64,000 nucleotides of DNA from Escherichia coli phage phiS, in the sequence record PP449093.1; one strand, given 5' to 3'. A program made the translations under genes and the position numbers. The notes beneath the pieces are model-generated. The model saw nothing but the letters and a program-made list of their open reading frames with translations, was not told where the DNA came from and made no database searches. How positions within the stretch are numbered: position 1 is the stretch's first letter; each line of letters starts with the position of its first letter. Shown here piece by piece: positions 3,850-23,639 of this stretch.

Positions 3850-3918
3850 TAGTGAGGTGAATTAATCCTTCTTCTGGATACCTGATAAATAATGGTATAC
3901 AGAAAAGAGGATTTATTC

Positions 3919-4566
3919 ATGAACTTACAAAAACTACACGACGCAATCATAGAAAAAGCAAAGATGAGAGGAACCGTTGAAGGATATAAGGAAACACATC
4001 ACATTTTACCGCGATCTATGGGTGGCAGTGATGAAGTCGATAACCTGATTGATTTGACAGCAAAAGAACATTTTGTTATTCATCACCTGCTAGCAAAAAT
4101 TCATGGTGGACCTATGGCGCAAGCATTTGGTATGATGTGTTTGGCAAAAAATGCTAAGACCAATAAAAGAGATTATGTTGTTTCGTCTAGGGTATATGAA
4201 CAAGCTAGGGTACTGATATCTGAACAAAGAAAGGGTAAGCCTATGAAAGAAGAAACGCGAAGAAAGATTAGCGAATCTTCAAAGGGTGTATTGAAATCAG
4301 AAGAAACAAAAGCTAAAATGCGTAAACCAAAAACAAAGGAGCACGCGTTAAACATTTCAAAAGCTAGAATGGGAAGTAAAAATCCTATGTTTGGTAAACC
4401 ATCACCAACTAAAGGAATACCACATAGCGAGGAAATGAGAAAGCTGATTGCACAAAGGACAAAGGAAGCAACGATGGCAGATCCTTGTCCGCATTGCGGT
4501 AAAATTACCAATAAAGGCAATGCTCTACGATGGCACTTTGATAACTGTAAAATGAGGAATATGTGA
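3919..4566 (+). CDS. mobE: HNH homing endonuclease between nrdA and nrdB (MobE-like)
   Basis: HNH core HHILPRSMGGSDEVDNLIDLTAKEHFVIH; repeated NUMOD3-like K/R-rich segments; RBS AAGAGGA before ATG 3919; stop overlaps nrdB ATG; same position as T4 mobE. Confidence 0.75.
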   Translation: MNLQKLHDAIIEKAKMRGTVEGYKETHHILPRSMGGSDEVDNLIDLTAKEHFVIHHLLAKIHGGPMAQAFGMMCLAKNAKTNKRDYVVSSRVYEQARVLISEQRKGKPMKEETRRKISESSKGVLKSEETKAKMRKPKTKEHALNISKARMGSKNPMFGKPSPTKGIPHSEEMRKLIAQRTKEATMADPCPHCGKITNKGNALRWHFDNCKMRNM

Positions 4567-5760
4567 ATGGGAAATACGGTATTTAATCGTGAACATGTTG
4601 ATATTATGAATGAACCGATGTTTCTGGGTAGCGGTTTAGGTATCGCTCGTTATGATATTCAGCGTCATCAAGTATTTGAAGAATTAATTGAAAAATCTCT
4701 GTCATTTTTCTGGCGTCCAGAAGAGATTTCACTTGCAACTGACCGCATTCAATATCTTAATATGGGTGACGTTGAAAAGCGTTTCTTTACTGAAAACTTG
4801 AAGTATCAGACATTACTTGATTCTATTCAAGGTCGCGCACCGTCCGCAGCATTTGGTCCAATTGTATCTGATCCAACTCTCGATACATGGTTACAAACAT
4901 GGACATTCAGCGAAACGATTCATAGCCGCAGTTATACTCACATTATGCGTAACTGTTTTATTGATCCGGCTAGTGAGTTCGACCAGATCATCGATAACCC
5001 TGCTATCATGAAGCGAGCGGAATCTATCGGGAAATATTATGATGATGTTCTTTATTGGATTCGTAAGTATGAGAATGCAAAAGAAGATCTCCGCTATTGG
5101 GAAGAAGAAGTTCTCCACCACTATTGGGAAGAACGAGACGATCAGACAGAATTAGATGATGCAAGAAGATTTTTTGAAGATACAAAACGAGATCTGATGG
5201 CTTCGATTTATCTGTGTGCACACTGCGTAAATGCACTGGAAGCAATTCGTTTTTATGTGTCCTTTGCATGTACTTTCAGCTTTGCCGAACGTGGTTTACT
5301 GGAAGGTAACGCGAAGATCATGAAATTTATTGCGCGTGATGAACAACTTCACTTAAAAGGCACACAATACATTATTCGTCAATGGCAAACGGGGGTTGAT
5401 GGTGATGAGTGGAAACAGATTGCGGAAGAACTTGAAGGCGAAGCAACGAAAATCTTTCTGGATGTTGTCGAGCAAGAAAAAGAATGGGTAGACCACCTAT
5501 TCGCAATGGGGGCAATTCCTAACCTGTCACCGGAAATTCTGAAAACCTATGTAGAATACCTGGCAGATTCCCGTATGCGCGCCGCCGGACTGAAAAGCCC
5601 GTTTAGTGTTCGTCGTCATCCGTTACCGTGGATGCGTAAATGGTTGAACTCTGACGAAGTACAGAATGCAGCGCAGGAAGTAGAGATTATGTATCTGGTA
5701 TCTCAGGTTAATACCGATTTAACAGACGACGACTACAACCGATTCGGGAAATATCTATGA
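4567..5760 (+). CDS. nrdB: Ribonucleotide reductase class Ia small subunit; no intron evident
   Basis: 397 aa continuous ORF; di-iron ligand motifs (EALEAIRFYVSF, ARDEQLHL); C-terminal acidic tail. Confidence 0.95.
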   Translation: MGNTVFNREHVDIMNEPMFLGSGLGIARYDIQRHQVFEELIEKSLSFFWRPEEISLATDRIQYLNMGDVEKRFFTENLKYQTLLDSIQGRAPSAAFGPIVSDPTLDTWLQTWTFSETIHSRSYTHIMRNCFIDPASEFDQIIDNPAIMKRAESIGKYYDDVLYWIRKYENAKEDLRYWEEEVLHHYWEERDDQTELDDARRFFEDTKRDLMASIYLCAHCVNALEAIRFYVSFACTFSFAERGLLEGNAKIMKFIARDEQLHLKGTQYIIRQWQTGVDGDEWKQIAEELEGEATKIFLDVVEQEKEWVDHLFAMGAIPNLSPEILKTYVEYLADSRMRAAGLKSPFSVRRHPLPWMRKWLNSDEVQNAAQEVEIMYLVSQVNTDLTDDDYNRFGKYL

Positions 5761-6233
5761 TATATTTTGTCGATTTAGATTTTACGATCACAGATCCAAC
5801 GCATCGACTAGCAAAGATGCCAACCGAAAATCTTGATAAAGTCGAGTCGTGGATCGAATATAACAAGGCATGTGGGGGAGATTCCCCCATTTACGATGTA
5901 ATTCGTGTTATTAATGCTCTTTCCGACAACGGGCATTTGATTTACATCCTCACCGGACGAAGTTCACATGCTTACATGGAAACAATTGATTGGTTAATTT
6001 CTAACGGGGTGTGTTTTGATAAAATCTTTATGAGAGGCCGTACCGATTCCCGTAAAGACTATCACATCAAATTAGAGGTAATTAAATCCTTTGATAAAGA
6101 TGAAGTTGTCGGAGTCTTTGAGGATAACCCAGAAGTGATTAAAGTTTTGCGTGAAAATGGTTATCGTGTCTTTGACGTAGGAAATCACAAAGATAAGACG
6201 CGAGCGGATATTGCAAATCACGGTCATGATTAA
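5757..6233 (+). CDS. HAD-superfamily phosphatase-like protein
   Basis: N-terminal DxD motif in VDLDFTITD (HAD motif I); ATGA overlap with nrdB stop. Confidence 0.5.
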   Translation: MIYFVDLDFTITDPTHRLAKMPTENLDKVESWIEYNKACGGDSPIYDVIRVINALSDNGHLIYILTGRSSHAYMETIDWLISNGVCFDKIFMRGRTDSRKDYHIKLEVIKSFDKDEVVGVFEDNPEVIKVLRENGYRVFDVGNHKDKTRADIANHGHD

Positions 6234-11344: not shown

Positions 11345-11657
11345 ACAAATTGATAATATCGCACTTCGTGAAGCACTCAAGAAAATGTTTTCGGTCGGTA
11401 CTCACTCTTTGCAGTTTACTAAGAAAGATGGTACTGTCCGTGAGATGATCGCCACGCGAGATCCGGCACTGATGCCGTTTGAAACATACGAAAAGTGGTT
11501 AGTTCCTAATGTTGAAAAACCGCGTAAAGAATCAGAAACATCTTTGCCAGTATATGAAATTGCAGTTGAAGGTTTCCGTAGTTTTGGGCTTGATAGTCTG
11601 ATTAATGTAGATGGATTGACTCCAGCGCAGATCATCGAAATGTACGGTGGTAGTTGA
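11331..11657 (+). CDS. Hypothetical protein (108 aa)
   Basis: ORF in operon context; no recognisable motif. Confidence 0.4.
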   Translation: MIMTEQIDNIALREALKKMFSVGTHSLQFTKKDGTVREMIATRDPALMPFETYEKWLVPNVEKPRKESETSLPVYEIAVEGFRSFGLDSLINVDGLTPAQIIEMYGGS

Positions 11658-12271
11658 CAATGGAAATAAAAGATGATAATATCATATTACCAGCACCGGA
11701 AGAATGGAGACAAGCTGTAGGTTATCCGTGGTATGAAATCTCTAATTATGGTAGATTGAGATCTATTGACCGAAATATCGAATTTTATAGAGAAGTTTCT
11801 CCTGGTAATATTAAGCTAGTAAAACAAAAACGTGCTGGTAAAATAATAAAACCGATTTTAGACCGATATGGGTATTATTATTCAACACTGTCAAAACAAA
11901 AAGACAATGGTAAAATCTCAGTTAAAGCCGAAAAGATACATCGACTTGTAGCAAATGCATTTCTAGGAGACGTTACCGGACTGGAGGTTAACCACATCAA
12001 TGGTGTAAAAACCTGCAATTATGTGTGGAATTTAGAAATAGTAACCTTACTAGAAAATATGAGACATTCATTTAGAACTGGACTCAATAACAATGTTGGT
12101 GAAAACCACTCACGGGCAAAACTGACAAATGCGCAAGTCGAAGAAATAATGCGACTCAAAGGAAAGGTTAAGAAGCAAATTATAGCCGATATGTTTAATG
12201 TTTCTTATTGTTGTATAGCGCAAATACATTCTGGTCTGCGGCGAAATCCAAAGGTCGCTAAATATAAATAA
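11654..12271 (+). CDS. HNH homing endonuclease (NUMOD4 + HNH + C-terminal HTH-like)
   Basis: NUMOD4-like WYEISNYGRLRS; HNH-like VNHINGVKTCNYVWNLEIVTLLENMRHS. Confidence 0.7.
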   Translation: MTMEIKDDNIILPAPEEWRQAVGYPWYEISNYGRLRSIDRNIEFYREVSPGNIKLVKQKRAGKIIKPILDRYGYYYSTLSKQKDNGKISVKAEKIHRLVANAFLGDVTGLEVNHINGVKTCNYVWNLEIVTLLENMRHSFRTGLNNNVGENHSRAKLTNAQVEEIMRLKGKVKKQIIADMFNVSYCCIAQIHSGLRRNPKVAKYK

Positions 12272-12307
12272 TTTACTATTGAACTGAATTGAAGAGGTAA
12301 GAAAATT

Positions 12308-12631
12308 ATGACCGTTAAAACTCCTAAAGCACTTGGTGACTATGTGATCATTGAAGCTAAAGCGGAAAGCGCAGGGACCGAAGTAAAGAGCGACTTTGGT
12401 ATTATCATCGAACAAAAACGAACTATGGGAGAGATTCCTTTAGTCGGTAAGATTATTGATATCGGTGATAACGTTGATAAAGAATTGCTGGGTAAGACTG
12501 TATTGCTTCCTCATGGGAAACTTAATAAAGTTCCTCATCCAGACGTTATTAACGGCGTTAAGAAGGAAGAAGAGATCGACCTGAAATGGACTGTAACACA
12601 CAAACAGAATATTGTGGTAGTTTACGGTTAA
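12308..12631 (+). CDS. 31: Co-chaperonin GroES-like protein (T4 gp31 homolog)
   Basis: 107 aa; GDYVIIEA and VPHP motifs resemble T4 gp31; position between cd and gene 30. Confidence 0.75.
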   Translation: MTVKTPKALGDYVIIEAKAESAGTEVKSDFGIIIEQKRTMGEIPLVGKIIDIGDNVDKELLGKTVLLPHGKLNKVPHPDVINGVKKEEEIDLKWTVTHKQNIVVVYG

Positions 12632-12642
12632 TGATTTTAAAC

Positions 12643-12669
12643 GGCGGGAAATAATCCCGCCTATATTTT
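12643..12669 (+). terminator. Terminator-like hairpin
   Basis: GGCGGGA aataa TCCCGCC then TATATTTT. Confidence 0.45.
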
Positions 12670-12713
12670 GGCTATATGATTTTGTAAGTTATTGATTATT
12701 AAGGAATTTTATT

Positions 12714-12878
12714 ATGAAAACTATGAATGTAAACATCCACGAAATCCATACCGAAGTATTCACCGATGAAGACCAGTTTGGTGTATGGGTAAATCCTCAT
12801 TCGATTACTATCGATATTCCTAATGACGATTATGATCCGTTCTCTCTGATTAGCGAGATTAGTTTCAATGACTTCTGA
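12714..12878 (+). CDS. Hypothetical small protein (54 aa)
   Basis: ATG with upstream AAGGAA; overlaps start of next gene. Confidence 0.25.
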   Translation: MKTMNVNIHEIHTEVFTDEDQFGVWVNPHSITIDIPNDDYDPFSLISEISFNDF

Positions 12879-13347
12879 AATTGATATCTATGCGGGTGGA
12901 CCTTATCCATCGGGTGAATTGAGTAATTTCAATAAAAGACCATTCCGTCTATTTGGTTGTGATATTAACAGCACAGAAGGATTTTTACAGGGGCTAAGAT
13001 TTAAGAACCCTCAGAGACAAAGAGAAATCTTTTTGATGCACGGTGGCAAAGCAAAAAGAACCGGAAGAACTGAAAAGATTGAGAATCACATGTTATATTT
13101 TCAGGGTCGCCAGATTCATCGAATGAGTGAGCATTATTACAGACTGGTACATCTGGCATTTGTTACGATGGCACGGAATAACCCAGAATTTTGTAAAGCA
13201 TTACTCGCTACAGGAAATAAGAAATTACGTCATAGCATAGGTGGAACTGATCCGTTAAAGACTATATTGACTGAATCGGAATTTTGTAGTATCCTCAATG
13301 ATATTCGTGAACGTTTAACAAAACGAGGTGAAAATGTCAATTCTTAA
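12868..13347 (+). CDS. NADAR-domain (YbiA/DUF1768-like) protein
   Basis: ELSNFNKRPF...STEGFLQGLRF and ALLATGNKKLRH blocks match the NADAR family signature. Confidence 0.6.
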   Translation: MTSEIDIYAGGPYPSGELSNFNKRPFRLFGCDINSTEGFLQGLRFKNPQRQREIFLMHGGKAKRTGRTEKIENHMLYFQGRQIHRMSEHYYRLVHLAFVTMARNNPEFCKALLATGNKKLRHSIGGTDPLKTILTESEFCSILNDIRERLTKRGENVNS

Positions 13348-14830
13348 TATCATTAACCAGCTTGCAGCGACCGACAAAACATCGCTGAAAGAAAAGATCC
13401 TGAAAGAATCCGCAAGTAATGAAACTCTGAAAGAATGCTTTTATCTGGCATATTGCAAACAGGTTACGTTTGGCGTAAAGAAATACGATAAACCATCGCG
13501 TTATTCGTCTGTATTGTCTTTATCCGGTGCATTACAGGTCTTTAAAAATAAACTTGCCACGCGTCAAGTAACTGGTAATGCAGCATTACAGCTAGTTACC
13601 GATACTCTGACTTGCTTGTCAGAGGATGATGCTAAAGTTGCAATGATGGTCCTGAATCGTGATCTGGAGTGTGGTTGTTCCGCTACCACTGCAAACAAGG
13701 TATGGAAGAAACTGATCCCCCAGCAACCGTGCCACCTTGCATCGTCATGTTCTGATAAGACTATTGCCAATATCAAATATCCGGCGTATGCACAACTTAA
13801 AAGCGATGGCGCTCGTGGTATGGCTGATATTGACGGGGAAACATTAGCAATCTATACCCGCTCAGGTAATACCTATCAAGGGCTTGATGATTTGTTTGCG
13901 GTTTTAGAGCGTCTACGAGGCCGTGGAATTGTTCTAGATGGCGAATTGGTATATATGCCTACCCTTTCGCAAACACCAGCGCAGAACTTCGTTGAGAGCG
14001 TTTATGATGGTACTCTGTCATGGATATTTGAAGAAGAGGAAATGCCATTAACGCCAGTAGCGGAAGCAGTGAAAGAATCCGTTGTTGCAGATCGTCAGAC
14101 CGGAAATGGTATCCTCAACAAATCACTTAAAGGAACTATTCCAAAAGAAGAAGCCCAATGTATTGTTTACACTGTCTGGGATGTTATCGACCGTGATGTG
14201 TATTACGGAAACGAGAAAGCAACGAAGCAATATAAAGATCGATTCGAAGAACTAAAACAGATTGTTGAAGAACTTAACGATCCTCGTGTTCAGATAATCG
14301 AAAATACTGTAGTTAACAATATCGATGAAGCTCGCGAAGTATATCATCGCTATGTAAACATGGGATTAGAAGGCATTATCCTTAAAAATTTACATGGTGT
14401 ATTTGAAGATCGTCGCAGTAAAGATCAGGTTAAATTTAAAGAAGTGATTGACTTCGACGCGGAAATTGTTGATGTATATCCGCATAGTAAAGATCCTAAT
14501 AAGGTAGGCGGTTTTACTGTCCGTAGTGCGTGCGGACGAATGATGACTAACACCGGATCGGGATTGACCGACACCACAACCGAAAAAGGCGATGATGGTA
14601 TTGAACGTGTGATTCCGTTTGACCGTCGAAATGAACTTGACCGAGAAATGTTATGGGCTGACCGTCATAACCTGATTGGAAAAGTCATTGAGATGACATG
14701 CAACGGGTATATCCGCAGCAAATCACGTAAAGAAGATGAACCGGAGTTCTCTTTATTTCTCCCAATCATAAAACGTATTCGCTACGACAAGACCACTGCA
14801 AATACAGTAAAAGAGGTATTCGATGTGTGA
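13334..14830 (+). CDS. 30: ATP-dependent DNA ligase
   Basis: Adenylation motif AQLKSDGARG (KxDG); overall resemblance to T4 gp30; RBS GAGGTGA. Confidence 0.95.
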   Translation: MSILNIINQLAATDKTSLKEKILKESASNETLKECFYLAYCKQVTFGVKKYDKPSRYSSVLSLSGALQVFKNKLATRQVTGNAALQLVTDTLTCLSEDDAKVAMMVLNRDLECGCSATTANKVWKKLIPQQPCHLASSCSDKTIANIKYPAYAQLKSDGARGMADIDGETLAIYTRSGNTYQGLDDLFAVLERLRGRGIVLDGELVYMPTLSQTPAQNFVESVYDGTLSWIFEEEEMPLTPVAEAVKESVVADRQTGNGILNKSLKGTIPKEEAQCIVYTVWDVIDRDVYYGNEKATKQYKDRFEELKQIVEELNDPRVQIIENTVVNNIDEAREVYHRYVNMGLEGIILKNLHGVFEDRRSKDQVKFKEVIDFDAEIVDVYPHSKDPNKVGGFTVRSACGRMMTNTGSGLTDTTTEKGDDGIERVIPFDRRNELDREMLWADRHNLIGKVIEMTCNGYIRSKSRKEDEPEFSLFLPIIKRIRYDKTTANTVKEVFDV

Positions 14831-15299
14831 TAATGAAGGGGCGAAAGCCCCTAAACCTAAAAAATTGTCAAAGAAAGAGCAACGCCAGATCCTGAAAATG
14901 AAATATGGTGGACGTTGTGCCTATTGTGGCGAGGAACTAGGGGATCGCTGGCACGCAGACCACATCAAACCAGTATTGCGACGCTCAAAGGTAGTCTATG
15001 ATGAAAATGGACGAATTGCCCGTAATGATGATGGATCGTGGAAGTATAAGGTTGTAGGAATGCATAAACCGGAGCATGATATACTTGATAACATGAATCC
15101 GGCGTGTGTGCAATGCAATCTTTACAAAAGCTGTATGGGCTTAGAATACTGGCGTAAGTGTATACGCGAGAACTTCCAGAAGTACATTCAGCACAATATG
15201 GGATTGCGAGCGGCTAAACGCTTTGGCTTGCTGTCAATTCATGACCAGCCAGTAGAATTTTATTTCGAAAAGTACGAGCGCGAGCATCAAGAAAAATAA
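14823..15299 (+). CDS. HNH nuclease (McrA-like zinc-finger HNH)
   Basis: CAYCG ... HADHIKP ... CVQCNLYK pattern typical of HNH nucleases. Confidence 0.65.
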   Translation: MCDNEGAKAPKPKKLSKKEQRQILKMKYGGRCAYCGEELGDRWHADHIKPVLRRSKVVYDENGRIARNDDGSWKYKVVGMHKPEHDILDNMNPACVQCNLYKSCMGLEYWRKCIRENFQKYIQHNMGLRAAKRFGLLSIHDQPVEFYFEKYEREHQEK

Positions 15300-15313
15300 T
15301 TCAAAAAAAGTTG

Positions 15314-21587: not shown

Positions 21588-23639
21588 ATGTTTAACTTAG
21601 AAATCGACGATCTAATGATTGAATCTTTCGAGAAATGGCTGTTGACGGAAGAGGAAGAAAACTTTGGTAGTATTGCCCCGGTACAGTGCTTAAAGCCTAA
21701 GCAGAATCCTAAACAGCTTTTTGCAGTACAGACACGCGATAAAGATGTGATTGTCCGTCTTTGTAACTTCACCAACAAAACACCTAAAATCATTCGTATG
21801 GGTGACAAGACAGCACATGTTGTACTGTGCGAAATGAACAAAAGCGGTCGTATTGTACAGCTTAAAAATGGTCTAGGCGATAACCCGATTGCAGTTATGG
21901 CAAGTGCTTTTGATGTGGTTATGGAAACAGCCCGTAAAGCGCAATTAGACGCTGTTATGTTCCGTTTTAACGTATCCCGCATGAAAGGTAAGACCGAACT
22001 GGTTAAGCGCGTTATAGAGCGTTTGGTGCGTCGTACACCGAAGTTTGAAGTATTCCAGCAGGAAGTAATGACCAGCAAAAAGATCGCTTTAGTTGTTGTC
22101 AAGCGTCGCGGTATGGCGATTGATAAGATTAAAGGGATTAAACTTGATGATTCCTTGTTCACTAAAGTAGAAAGTGATTTAGGTGATCGCTGGGTATCTA
22201 AGGCTACTGGTGAATCTCTGACTAAAGATGAGGCGTATGCGGCTAGTCTTGTGTCAGAAGAAGAACGAAACGCGGAAGCGGAACAACGCGTAGCGGCTAA
22301 ATCTCGTTTGACTAAAGAAGAAATGCTGAAAACTCAAGCGACCTATAACAGCGACTATGTGAATCATCCAGAAAAAATTAATCTTAAACCGGAAGAAGAT
22401 ATCACCGAAGCCGAACCTAAGAAACAGTTTAATACTCTGATTGATCGTCAAGCCTTAGAACGTTCAACCGCTCGTTCTCTGAATGAATGGACAAGTGATA
22501 TTATCACTCGCTATGGTTTCATGCGTACTATTTTTGAAAGCGAAGCCGATGCAAAATACGCAGTAAGCGAACTGGTAAAAGTTCAGGATCAATATGATCC
22601 GTTGTCTGCGGAAGTTATCGCAGCATCAATCAAACGCTTAAAAGAAATCATGAGCGAGGAAGTATTCGAAAACAAGATCACCGCCCTGGCAATGGATCGA
22701 GTAGACCAGTCTATGCCAGCAGATGTAAAAGCTGAAATGCTGCGTAGTCATATCACCCAGATTAAAACCGATGCCCTACGTAATGTTGCTTCCGGTATGT
22801 TTGAAGCAATTGCTAGCAACATGGGTGAAATGATGGCAGATATTGATCTTGATCTGCCGGGCGCGGAAGGTTTTGTATTGAGCGAATATGCCGATGCAGC
22901 ATACATCAATATGAACAACTTCCTAACCGACCGTAAGCTGGAAGAGTTTGAAGGCATCGCAGATCCAGAAGAATTGGTCAAGATGTGCGATGCACTGGAT
23001 AATGCCTTCTCTAACTATGGTGTTAAACTTGATCCGGGTACTATTCTGTATCGTGGTATGGACTTCCGGTCGCAAATGTGGGAAACTGCACGTAAGCAAA
23101 AAGCGTTTTACTTTAAAAACTATGTGAGCACTTCCCTTGCACCTAACATTTTTGGTGGCTGGAATGCAAACGTGGCTAGTGCCATTGCTGGTGTTGATTC
23201 TATGGCTGGCTCTCGCGGTGAAGGTGGCGCTAATGTTGCTTTCTCCATTGCTGGCGCGGAAAACATCCCTGTATTGCCAGTAGGTAACAAAGCATTTGCT
23301 TACAAAGAATGCGAGATTTTACTTCCTCGCGGTGTTGTGTTATCCTTTGATACGGTAACTCGTGCTACGGCATCGACGGATTCACAAGAAACATATTACA
23401 TTGAGGCACATATTATGAACAAAAGTGAACTGGCAGCATTACAAGAATCTGGCGAAATGATCGCGGACGGTGATGCATTCATCCGTGAAGGTGTTGTTAA
23501 ACCTGCTTCTGACCTGTCTTTCTCCAGCTTCATTAGCGAAGCTAAAACCGAACGTAAGAAAGCAGATAAGGCAACTCTACGTCAGCTTATCGCTGATCTG
23601 GTATCTGTAGACGCAATGCCAGATAAATTTAAAATGTAA
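21588..23639 (+). CDS. alt: ADP-ribosyltransferase Alt (head-packaged)
   Basis: 683 aa (T4 Alt is about 682); R-S-E catalytic triad motifs LYRG, VSTSLAP, ECEILLPRG; CATAAATA late-promoter-like box at 21547-21554. Confidence 0.85.
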   Translation: MFNLEIDDLMIESFEKWLLTEEEENFGSIAPVQCLKPKQNPKQLFAVQTRDKDVIVRLCNFTNKTPKIIRMGDKTAHVVLCEMNKSGRIVQLKNGLGDNPIAVMASAFDVVMETARKAQLDAVMFRFNVSRMKGKTELVKRVIERLVRRTPKFEVFQQEVMTSKKIALVVVKRRGMAIDKIKGIKLDDSLFTKVESDLGDRWVSKATGESLTKDEAYAASLVSEEERNAEAEQRVAAKSRLTKEEMLKTQATYNSDYVNHPEKINLKPEEDITEAEPKKQFNTLIDRQALERSTARSLNEWTSDIITRYGFMRTIFESEADAKYAVSELVKVQDQYDPLSAEVIAASIKRLKEIMSEEVFENKITALAMDRVDQSMPADVKAEMLRSHITQIKTDALRNVASGMFEAIASNMGEMMADIDLDLPGAEGFVLSEYADAAYINMNNFLTDRKLEEFEGIADPEELVKMCDALDNAFSNYGVKLDPGTILYRGMDFRSQMWETARKQKAFYFKNYVSTSLAPNIFGGWNANVASAIAGVDSMAGSRGEGGANVAFSIAGAENIPVLPVGNKAFAYKECEILLPRGVVLSFDTVTRATASTDSQETYYIEAHIMNKSELAALQESGEMIADGDAFIREGVVKPASDLSFSSFISEAKTERKKADKATLRQLIADLVSVDAMPDKFKM

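Follow-up and report, generated by a model that had tools for sequence, protein, structure and literature searches.

A T4 gene 30.3 (adfN) orthologue directly upstream of DNA ligase in Escherichia coli phage phiS: a predicted NADAR-type anti-DarTG1 factor with arginine at an active-site lysine position

The sequence analysed here, which we call the window, is a stretch of 64,000 nucleotides from Escherichia coli phage phiS (PP449093.1); coordinates refer to it unless another sequence is named. A 159-codon open reading frame on the plus strand, from ATG to TAA at 12868-13347, was confirmed at exactly these bounds from the sequence and the ORF list, and its start and stop are identical in public annotations. 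We refer to it as the adfN-like gene (T4 gene 30.3 orthologue); its product has the NADAR fold and is a predicted DNA ADP-ribosylglycohydrolase. The first-pass annotation had placed this ORF directly upstream of DNA ligase, and that is its position: the stop codon (13345-13347) falls within the first codons of gene 30 (13334..14830, plus strand), which encodes an ATP-dependent DNA ligase (PF01068 DNA_ligase_A_M, E 2.8e-22; phrog_114, E 1.4e-141) that is 41% identical to T4 gp30. The probable ATG of the ligase gene, at 13334, follows a GAGG Shine-Dalgarno motif, and the two genes overlap by 14 nt. The 12868-13347 ORF is no chance reading frame, because tblastn finds matches in 1509 phage records and a profile search recovers 1664 family protein clusters at 50% identity. 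No plus-strand ORF of at least 40 aa, of the kind represented by the internal out-of-frame 30.3' of T4, lies within the gene, and an antisense ORF of 52 aa inside it (13001-13159) was taken as chance.

The upstream neighbour, ORF54 (12714..12878, plus strand; phrog_15277, E 2.3e-41), encodes 54 amino acids, and its last 11 nt overlap the beginning of the adfN-like gene (ATGACTTCTGA). The two are probably co-translated, and ORF54, 30.3 and 30 together read as one packed, translationally coupled block. A GC-rich hairpin followed by a T-run lies after gene 31 (12643..12661, plus strand; 7-bp stem with six GC pairs). It was found by a consensus scan, its sequence was read directly, and it appears to be a terminator-like element that forms the upstream bound of the block. 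No convincing sigma-70-type promoter was found between this hairpin and ORF54, where candidate sites were no more numerous than in shuffled sequence. The ORF54 product is acidic (pI 4.05), with 11 Asp and Glu residues against one Lys or Arg. It is specific to Krischvirus, being present only in the 59 records described below; it matches nothing in Pfam, NCBIfam or PADLOC and does not resemble T4 gp30.4. Candidate roles are those of a small inhibitor, a mimic of DNA or a partner protein for the NADAR enzyme.

A megablast search with positions 11600-15300 matched 59 phage records at 95-99% identity. All are RB49-like phages of E. coli or Shigella, in the genus Krischvirus of the family Straboviridae, and the adfN-like gene is intact and conserved in all 59 genomes at an identity of at least 95%. 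The window protein is 100% identical to that of phage UPWr_E1 and 98.7% identical to that of RB49; a metagenomic relative (P0002) is 69% identical. The gene is already labelled 30.3 in RB49 (RefSeq) and in Phi1 and JSE (GenBank), a label that identifies it as a 30.3 orthologue and that these RB49-type records have carried from the time they were deposited; in most of the Krischvirus records inspected, the label is "hypothetical protein".

Two HNH genes flank the ligase/30.3 block in phage phiS. An ORF at 11654-12271 (plus strand), between 31.1 and 31, carries NUMOD4 and HNH_3 domains and is a homing-endonuclease ORF. It is present in some Krischvirus genomes, FL20 and ECD7 among them, and absent from UPWr_E1, RB49, kaaroe and others; in genomes that lack it, megablast matches begin just past the ORF, a mobile insertion polymorphism. 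The other, at 14823-15299 (plus strand; 158 aa), begins within the ligase gene, 8 nt ahead of its stop, and is present in RB49 too, under the annotation HNH endonuclease. A further likely homing endonuclease, a NUMOD3-motif protein (3892-4566, plus strand), lies between nrdA and nrdB, and a 158-aa HAD/PNKP-phosphatase-like protein (5757-6233, plus strand) follows nrdB. The td ORF at 20-958 was considered as a possible oddity on account of an N-terminal 154 aa that has no Pfam match, and was set aside, as td is annotated in relatives as a single uninterrupted gene. Scans of the full window for Rfam families and tRNAs returned nothing.

The product of the adfN-like gene belongs almost certainly to the AdfN/gp30.3 family of NADAR proteins. 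Its best Pfam match is PF08010 (Phage_30_3), with 130.1 bits against a cut-off of 36 (E 6.5e-38) over profile positions 2-138 of 138, and it matches phrog_652 at E 2.5e-45. BLASTP against T4 gp30.3 gave 38% identity between residues 3-150 and residues 2-152 of the T4 protein (E 8e-29). The first-pass annotation had called the product a NADAR-domain protein and proposed a profile search as a check, and profile support proved to be divided. The match to the Pfam NADAR profile itself, PF08719, reaches 16.7 bits and lies under the cut-off of 35.1 (E 0.009), and support comes instead from PF08010 and from the alignment to YbiA given below. The PF08719 cut-off is non-discriminating here, because T4 AdfN, a proven NADAR enzyme, has no PF08719 match at E<=1 and E. 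coli YbiA cross-matches PF08010 (E 0.004); the two profiles describe sister families. NCBIfam gave a weak match, far under its cut-off, to the "NADAR family anti-phage protein" DS32_2 (E 0.014), and the PADLOC defence-protein models matched neither the window protein nor T4 AdfN.

Profile and fold comparisons point the same way. A profile built from 57 family sequences aligned by hhalign to YbiA over residues 15-121 (probability 77%, E 2e-5), and YbiA was the sole PDB sequence that the profile recovered. An AlphaFold2 model made on the 57-sequence alignment (pLDDT 94.4, pTM 0.89) was used for a fold search, which confirmed the YbiA/NADAR fold and returned YbiA among the top structural matches. 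At the level of superfamily and fold, the NADAR label was right.

The active-site positions defined in other NADAR proteins were located by alignment, and their conservation was counted over 286 aligned domains taken from 277 varied members of the family together with the window and T4 proteins. Glu37 (codon GAA, 12976..12978, plus strand) corresponds to E36 of T4 AdfN, E88 of the NADAR of E. coli C7 (EcC7), E43 of the P. nicotianae protein and E48 of YbiA. The equivalence was obtained from pairwise and family alignments and from the hhalign alignment to YbiA; the residue is Glu in 277 of the 286 domains, and the position is a contact of the distal ribose (PMC11543638, PMC11825919). His122 (codon CAT, 13231..13233, plus strand), in the last beta-strand, corresponds to H123 of T4 AdfN and, when the hhalign alignment over residues 15-121 is extended onward, to E125 of YbiA. 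It is invariant in alignments A1 and A2 and is His in 273 of the 286 domains. A His in the last strand is the hallmark of phage gp30.3-type NADARs, the residue being Glu in the YbiA family and Asp in DarG1-type proteins (PMC11125620, PMC11543638). The C-terminal alpha-helix (residues 136-152; 13273..13323, plus strand) is intact in the AlphaFold2 secondary structure, with a pLDDT of 94-97 per 10-residue block, and the alignment of the window protein extends to the last residue of T4 AdfN.

The third position differs from nearly all of the family. Arg44 (codon AGA, 12997..12999, plus strand) occupies the site of the phosphate-coordinating lysine (K43 in T4 AdfN, K95 in EcC7 NADAR, K50 in the P. 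nicotianae protein, K55 in YbiA), and it retains the basic character of that residue. Lys is found here in 276 of the 286 domains and Arg in six, namely the window protein, two relatives that are 98% and 69% identical to it, the unrelated P0242, and two degenerate second domains in which the Glu has also been lost. Arg is thus restricted to the Krischvirus group and P0242 among domains that retain the equivalents of E37 and H122, and Arg44 reads as a rare, naturally occurring K-to-R substitution at an important site of the active centre.

Variation was also seen elsewhere in the family. At residue 63, in a basic AK..G loop near the ADP-ribose site, the window protein and 264 of the 286 domains have Lys, and T4 AdfN (L001, 3311-3766, minus strand) has Gln. 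In EcC7 NADAR, a nearby Lys, K115, is needed in vivo and dispensable for catalysis; its equivalence to residue 63 is only putative. The T4-specific loss of Lys at this site might be relevant to the failure of T4 AdfN outside T-even infection. Some PF08010 proteins are multi-domain, with two or three tandem gp30.3 domains, one of them without the catalytic Glu and/or Lys. A stand-alone PF08010 gene occurs in a bacterial chromosome (L006, 6001-6447; Limnocylindrales MAG, GCA_035559535.1) between genes for an NTP-transferase and a ClC channel; it is accompanied by no DarT and no obvious prophage. Proteins P0130, P0145, P0159, P0178 and P0224 make up these observations beyond phages or in tandem.

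Gene order in the window is that of a classic T4-like phage: td, nrdA, nrdB, rnlA, pseT, cd.2, cd, 31.1, 31, 30.3 and 30, followed beyond gene 30 by alt and then by tail, head and baseplate genes. The order in T4 is 30.4, 30.3, 30.2, 30.1, 30, and in Acinetobacter phage Ac42 it is 30.3, 30.2, 30. Krischviruses are without 30.1 and 30.2, hence 30.3 abuts 30. When T4 30.1, 30.2, 30.4-30.9 and rIII were sought in the window by tblastn, none was found. T4 gp30.2, which has no tblastn similarity anywhere in the window, has a DxDGV motif (DIDGV) at its N-terminus, which hints at a HAD-type protein. In Agrobacterium phage Atu_ph04, which lies outside the Straboviridae, the 30.3 homologue adjoins a helicase gene; in a 317-kb contig that resembles a jumbo phage, it sits amid small unannotated genes; and in the Limnocylindrales chromosome, it is found amid housekeeping genes. 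Adjacency to the ligase therefore reflects an inherited T4-like gene order and not a functional coupling.

The family, fold, mechanism and biological role of NADAR proteins such as this one have all been published. Schuller et al. (2023) reported that NADARs reverse the guanine ADP-ribosylation made by DarT1 (PMC11543638). Cleavage occurs at the bond between base and ribose, and the DNA backbone is left intact. The catalytic positions in that study are E88, K95 and D171 in EcC7 NADAR and E43, K50 and E125 in the P. nicotianae protein, with His at the last position in phage NADARs. The lysine is essential in EcC7 NADAR; the K95R protein hydrolysed ADPr-guanine in vitro, but cells were not rescued from DarT1 (PMC11543638). 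In vitro, T4 gp30.3 hydrolyses guanine-linked ADP-ribose and not thymidine-linked ADP-ribose (PMC11125620, Toxins 2024). Johannesman et al. (2025) renamed gene 30.3 adfN, for anti-DarT factor NADAR, and found that T2 and T4 need AdfN to plaque on DarTG1 cells and that AdfN is enough to let RB69 do so (PMC11825919). In the same work, T4 AdfN stripped ADP-ribose from DNA in vitro; E36A, K43A and a C-terminal truncation were impaired, K43A giving partial rescue; and RB69, whose allele is without the last helix, was DarTG1-sensitive. Full activity of T4 AdfN was seen only in T-even infection, which implies a phage cofactor. The panel consisted only of Tevenvirinae (Bas35-47, T2, T4, T6 and RB69), and every phage NADAR assayed so far is guanine-specific (PMC11825919). 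What the first-pass annotation had stated, that NADAR enzymes strip ADP-ribose from guanine in DNA, is thus reported for the DarG1 NADARs and for T4 gp30.3. A literature search linking RB49 or Krischvirus to DarTG or ADP-ribosylation gave no relevant result.

The phiS gene is an intact orthologue of T4 gene 30.3, conserved in fold, in the catalytic Glu and last-strand His, and in synteny. From the T4 and DarG1 work we infer that its product has enzymatic activity, guanine specificity and a role in counter-defence. The window gene probably gives this phage counter-defence against DarTG1 as the gp30.3/AdfN orthologue. We stop at "probably" because residue 44 is Arg and because the function is carried over from T4 AdfN at only 38% identity. 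The loss of rescue in EcC7 K95R and the dependence of T4 AdfN on a further T-even factor for full activity also weigh against this reading. The first-pass annotation had suggested either a counter to DarT-type toxins or a part in nucleotide metabolism; the first of these is supported by the T4 orthologue AdfN, and metabolism is the weaker reading. Fixation of the intact gene in 59 genomes argues for a working enzyme, the efficiency or specificity of which may differ from that of T4 AdfN.

The predicted course of events is as follows. The Krischvirus product would be a free-standing, His-type, NADAR-fold N-glycosidase. In a host that carries DarTG1, DarT1 would ADP-ribosylate the N2 of guanine in phage DNA and block replication. 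Enzyme made from the pseT-cd-31-30.3-30 cluster would then bind the ADP-ribose moiety, with Glu37 touching the distal ribose, Arg44 standing in for the pyrophosphate-contacting Lys, and His122 of the last beta-strand at the catalytic centre. Hydrolysis of the N-glycosidic bond between guanine and ribose would release ADP-ribose and restore unmodified G and replication, making the protein an "orphan antitoxin". The absence of a strand break would leave the neighbouring ligase outside the reaction.

A search for the other anti-DarT factor, AdfA (T4 61.2), gave no match in the window and none across RB49 positions 1-45000, a range that includes the syntenic 61-41 interval. The site of T4 61.2 (adfA), between 61.1 and 41, is occupied in RB49 by dc1 and dc2, which are unrelated genes (NC_005066 11585-12628, L011). 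With no AdfA homologue detected in the window or in the syntenic interval of RB49, 30.3 may be the one anti-DarT1 factor known in RB49-like phages.

It is unlikely, although Arg44 raises the question, that the protein belongs to the same family but is shifted or weakened, either as a poor anti-DarT1 factor or as an enzyme retuned to another ADP-ribosylated substrate, which might be the product of another DarT-like or a ScARP/pierisin-like toxin, or ADP-ribosylated RNA, possibly with ORF54 as a partner. Such a shift would be consistent with the rarity of Arg at this site (six of 286 domains) and with the behaviour of EcC7 K95R, active in vitro and yet unable to rescue cells from DarT1. It would also suit the requirement of T4 AdfN for an additional phage factor and the nature of ORF54, a strongly acidic product confined to the 59 Krischvirus records whose ORF overlaps the start codon. 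However, the positive charge is preserved by Arg, and the K95R protein is still catalytically active in vitro; Arg is fixed in an intact lineage (59 records at >=95% identity, with P0002 at 69% also carrying Arg); guanine specificity is shared by all phage NADARs assayed; and the link between ORF54 and the enzyme is one of adjacency only. A version that combines the K-to-R change with ORF54, giving either a shifted substrate range or a two-component counter-defence in which ORF54 is the equivalent of the T4-type potentiating factor, strikes us as quite unlikely.

Hydrolysis of small molecules in place of DNA adducts is in our judgement very unlikely. The protein would then be a riboflavin-intermediate N-glycosidase, or a destroyer of soluble ADP-ribose-derived immune signals or toxins. 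YbiA, one of the top structural matches, is annotated as an N-glycosidase, and the gene lies in a cluster of nucleotide-metabolism genes (td, nrdAB, cd, pseT). Before the AdfN work, Iyer et al. (2022) had proposed phage NADARs in general as hydrolases of ADP-ribose-derived small molecules. Yet the protein falls in the His-type gp30.3 clade and not in the Glu-type YbiA family, the one clade member that has been characterised has ADP-ribosylated DNA as its substrate and accounts for a phage phenotype, and the position in the cluster is inherited T4 synteny. In the same region, ~8 kb downstream of the NADAR gene, an ORF at 21588-23639 (plus strand; 683 aa) carries an ADP-ribosyltransferase exoenzyme domain (PF03496, E 1.5e-9) and is an Alt-type phage ART. 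An ADP-ribosyl "writer" and a predicted "eraser" are therefore found in one region, a pairing noted in T4-like phages by Iyer et al. (2022).

That enzyme and ligase form a repair pair, with adduct removal followed by strand sealing, is extremely improbable and is largely refuted by comparative gene context: in spite of the 14-nt overlap and of the position of 30.3 a few genes at most from gene 30 in T4, Ac42 and RB49, genes 30.2 and 30.1 intervene in T4 and 30.2 in Ac42, homologues elsewhere adjoin helicase, housekeeping or small unannotated genes, and no ligation step would be needed because NADAR enzymes cut between base and ribose and the backbone stays whole, with no nick to seal (PMC11543638).

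With DarTG1 counter-defence as the preferred reading, "AdfN-type NADAR" becomes a suitable name for the gene, whose predicted role is to counter the DarTG1 defence. The name would be useful when therapeutic RB49-like phages are picked against E. coli strains that carry DarTG1; beyond correct annotation, its importance is small. The natural K-to-R variant would, in addition, provide a cheap test of the need for the NADAR active-site lysine in vivo. Together with ORF54 and the apparent absence of AdfA, it would make RB49-like phages well suited to a clean test of the importance of that lysine in vivo.

Among the systems with which the phiS gene can be compared, T4 AdfN is the closest. The two proteins share PF08010, 38% identity over the full length, the NADAR fold and their three best structural matches. 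They also have in common the Glu (E36/E37), the His (H123/H122), the C-terminal helix and the slot upstream of gene 30, and both are without the N-terminal extension of the DarG1 type. They differ in that the window protein has Arg44 for K43 and Lys63 for the Gln of T4 (Lys in 92% of the family); the window is without 30.1, 30.2 and an internal 30.3' ORF, its upstream neighbour being ORF54 and not 30.4; and Krischvirus lies outside the Tevenvirinae, the group assayed in the AdfN study.

Differences from the DarG1 proteins (the BC4488-type NADARs of G. lovleyi 8BAT and E. coli C7; PMC11543638) are larger. The window protein has His in the last strand where DarG1 has Asp, and Arg where DarG1 requires Lys for rescue in vivo. 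It is 159 aa long, with the core motif starting from residue ~15 and no N-terminal extension, whereas the G. lovleyi NADAR has 219 aa. Its gene is carried by a lytic phage and not by a toxin-antitoxin operon: no DarT1 gene lies beside it, the neighbours are ORF54 and the ligase, and the flanking ORFs have no DarT-like domain by Pfam. E. coli YbiA (2B3W) has Glu125 in place of His122 and is encoded in the host chromosome beside dinG, with rhlE and ybiB nearby, and its substrate is metabolic; the window protein, for its part, falls below the Pfam NADAR threshold. AdfN(Bas32) and AdfN(Bas60), from T5-like phages and Vequintavirinae, are phage orphan NADARs with anti-DarTG1 activity and guanine specificity (PMC11825919); by the description in that paper, they represent other, independently acquired NADAR clades that need no extra phage factor.
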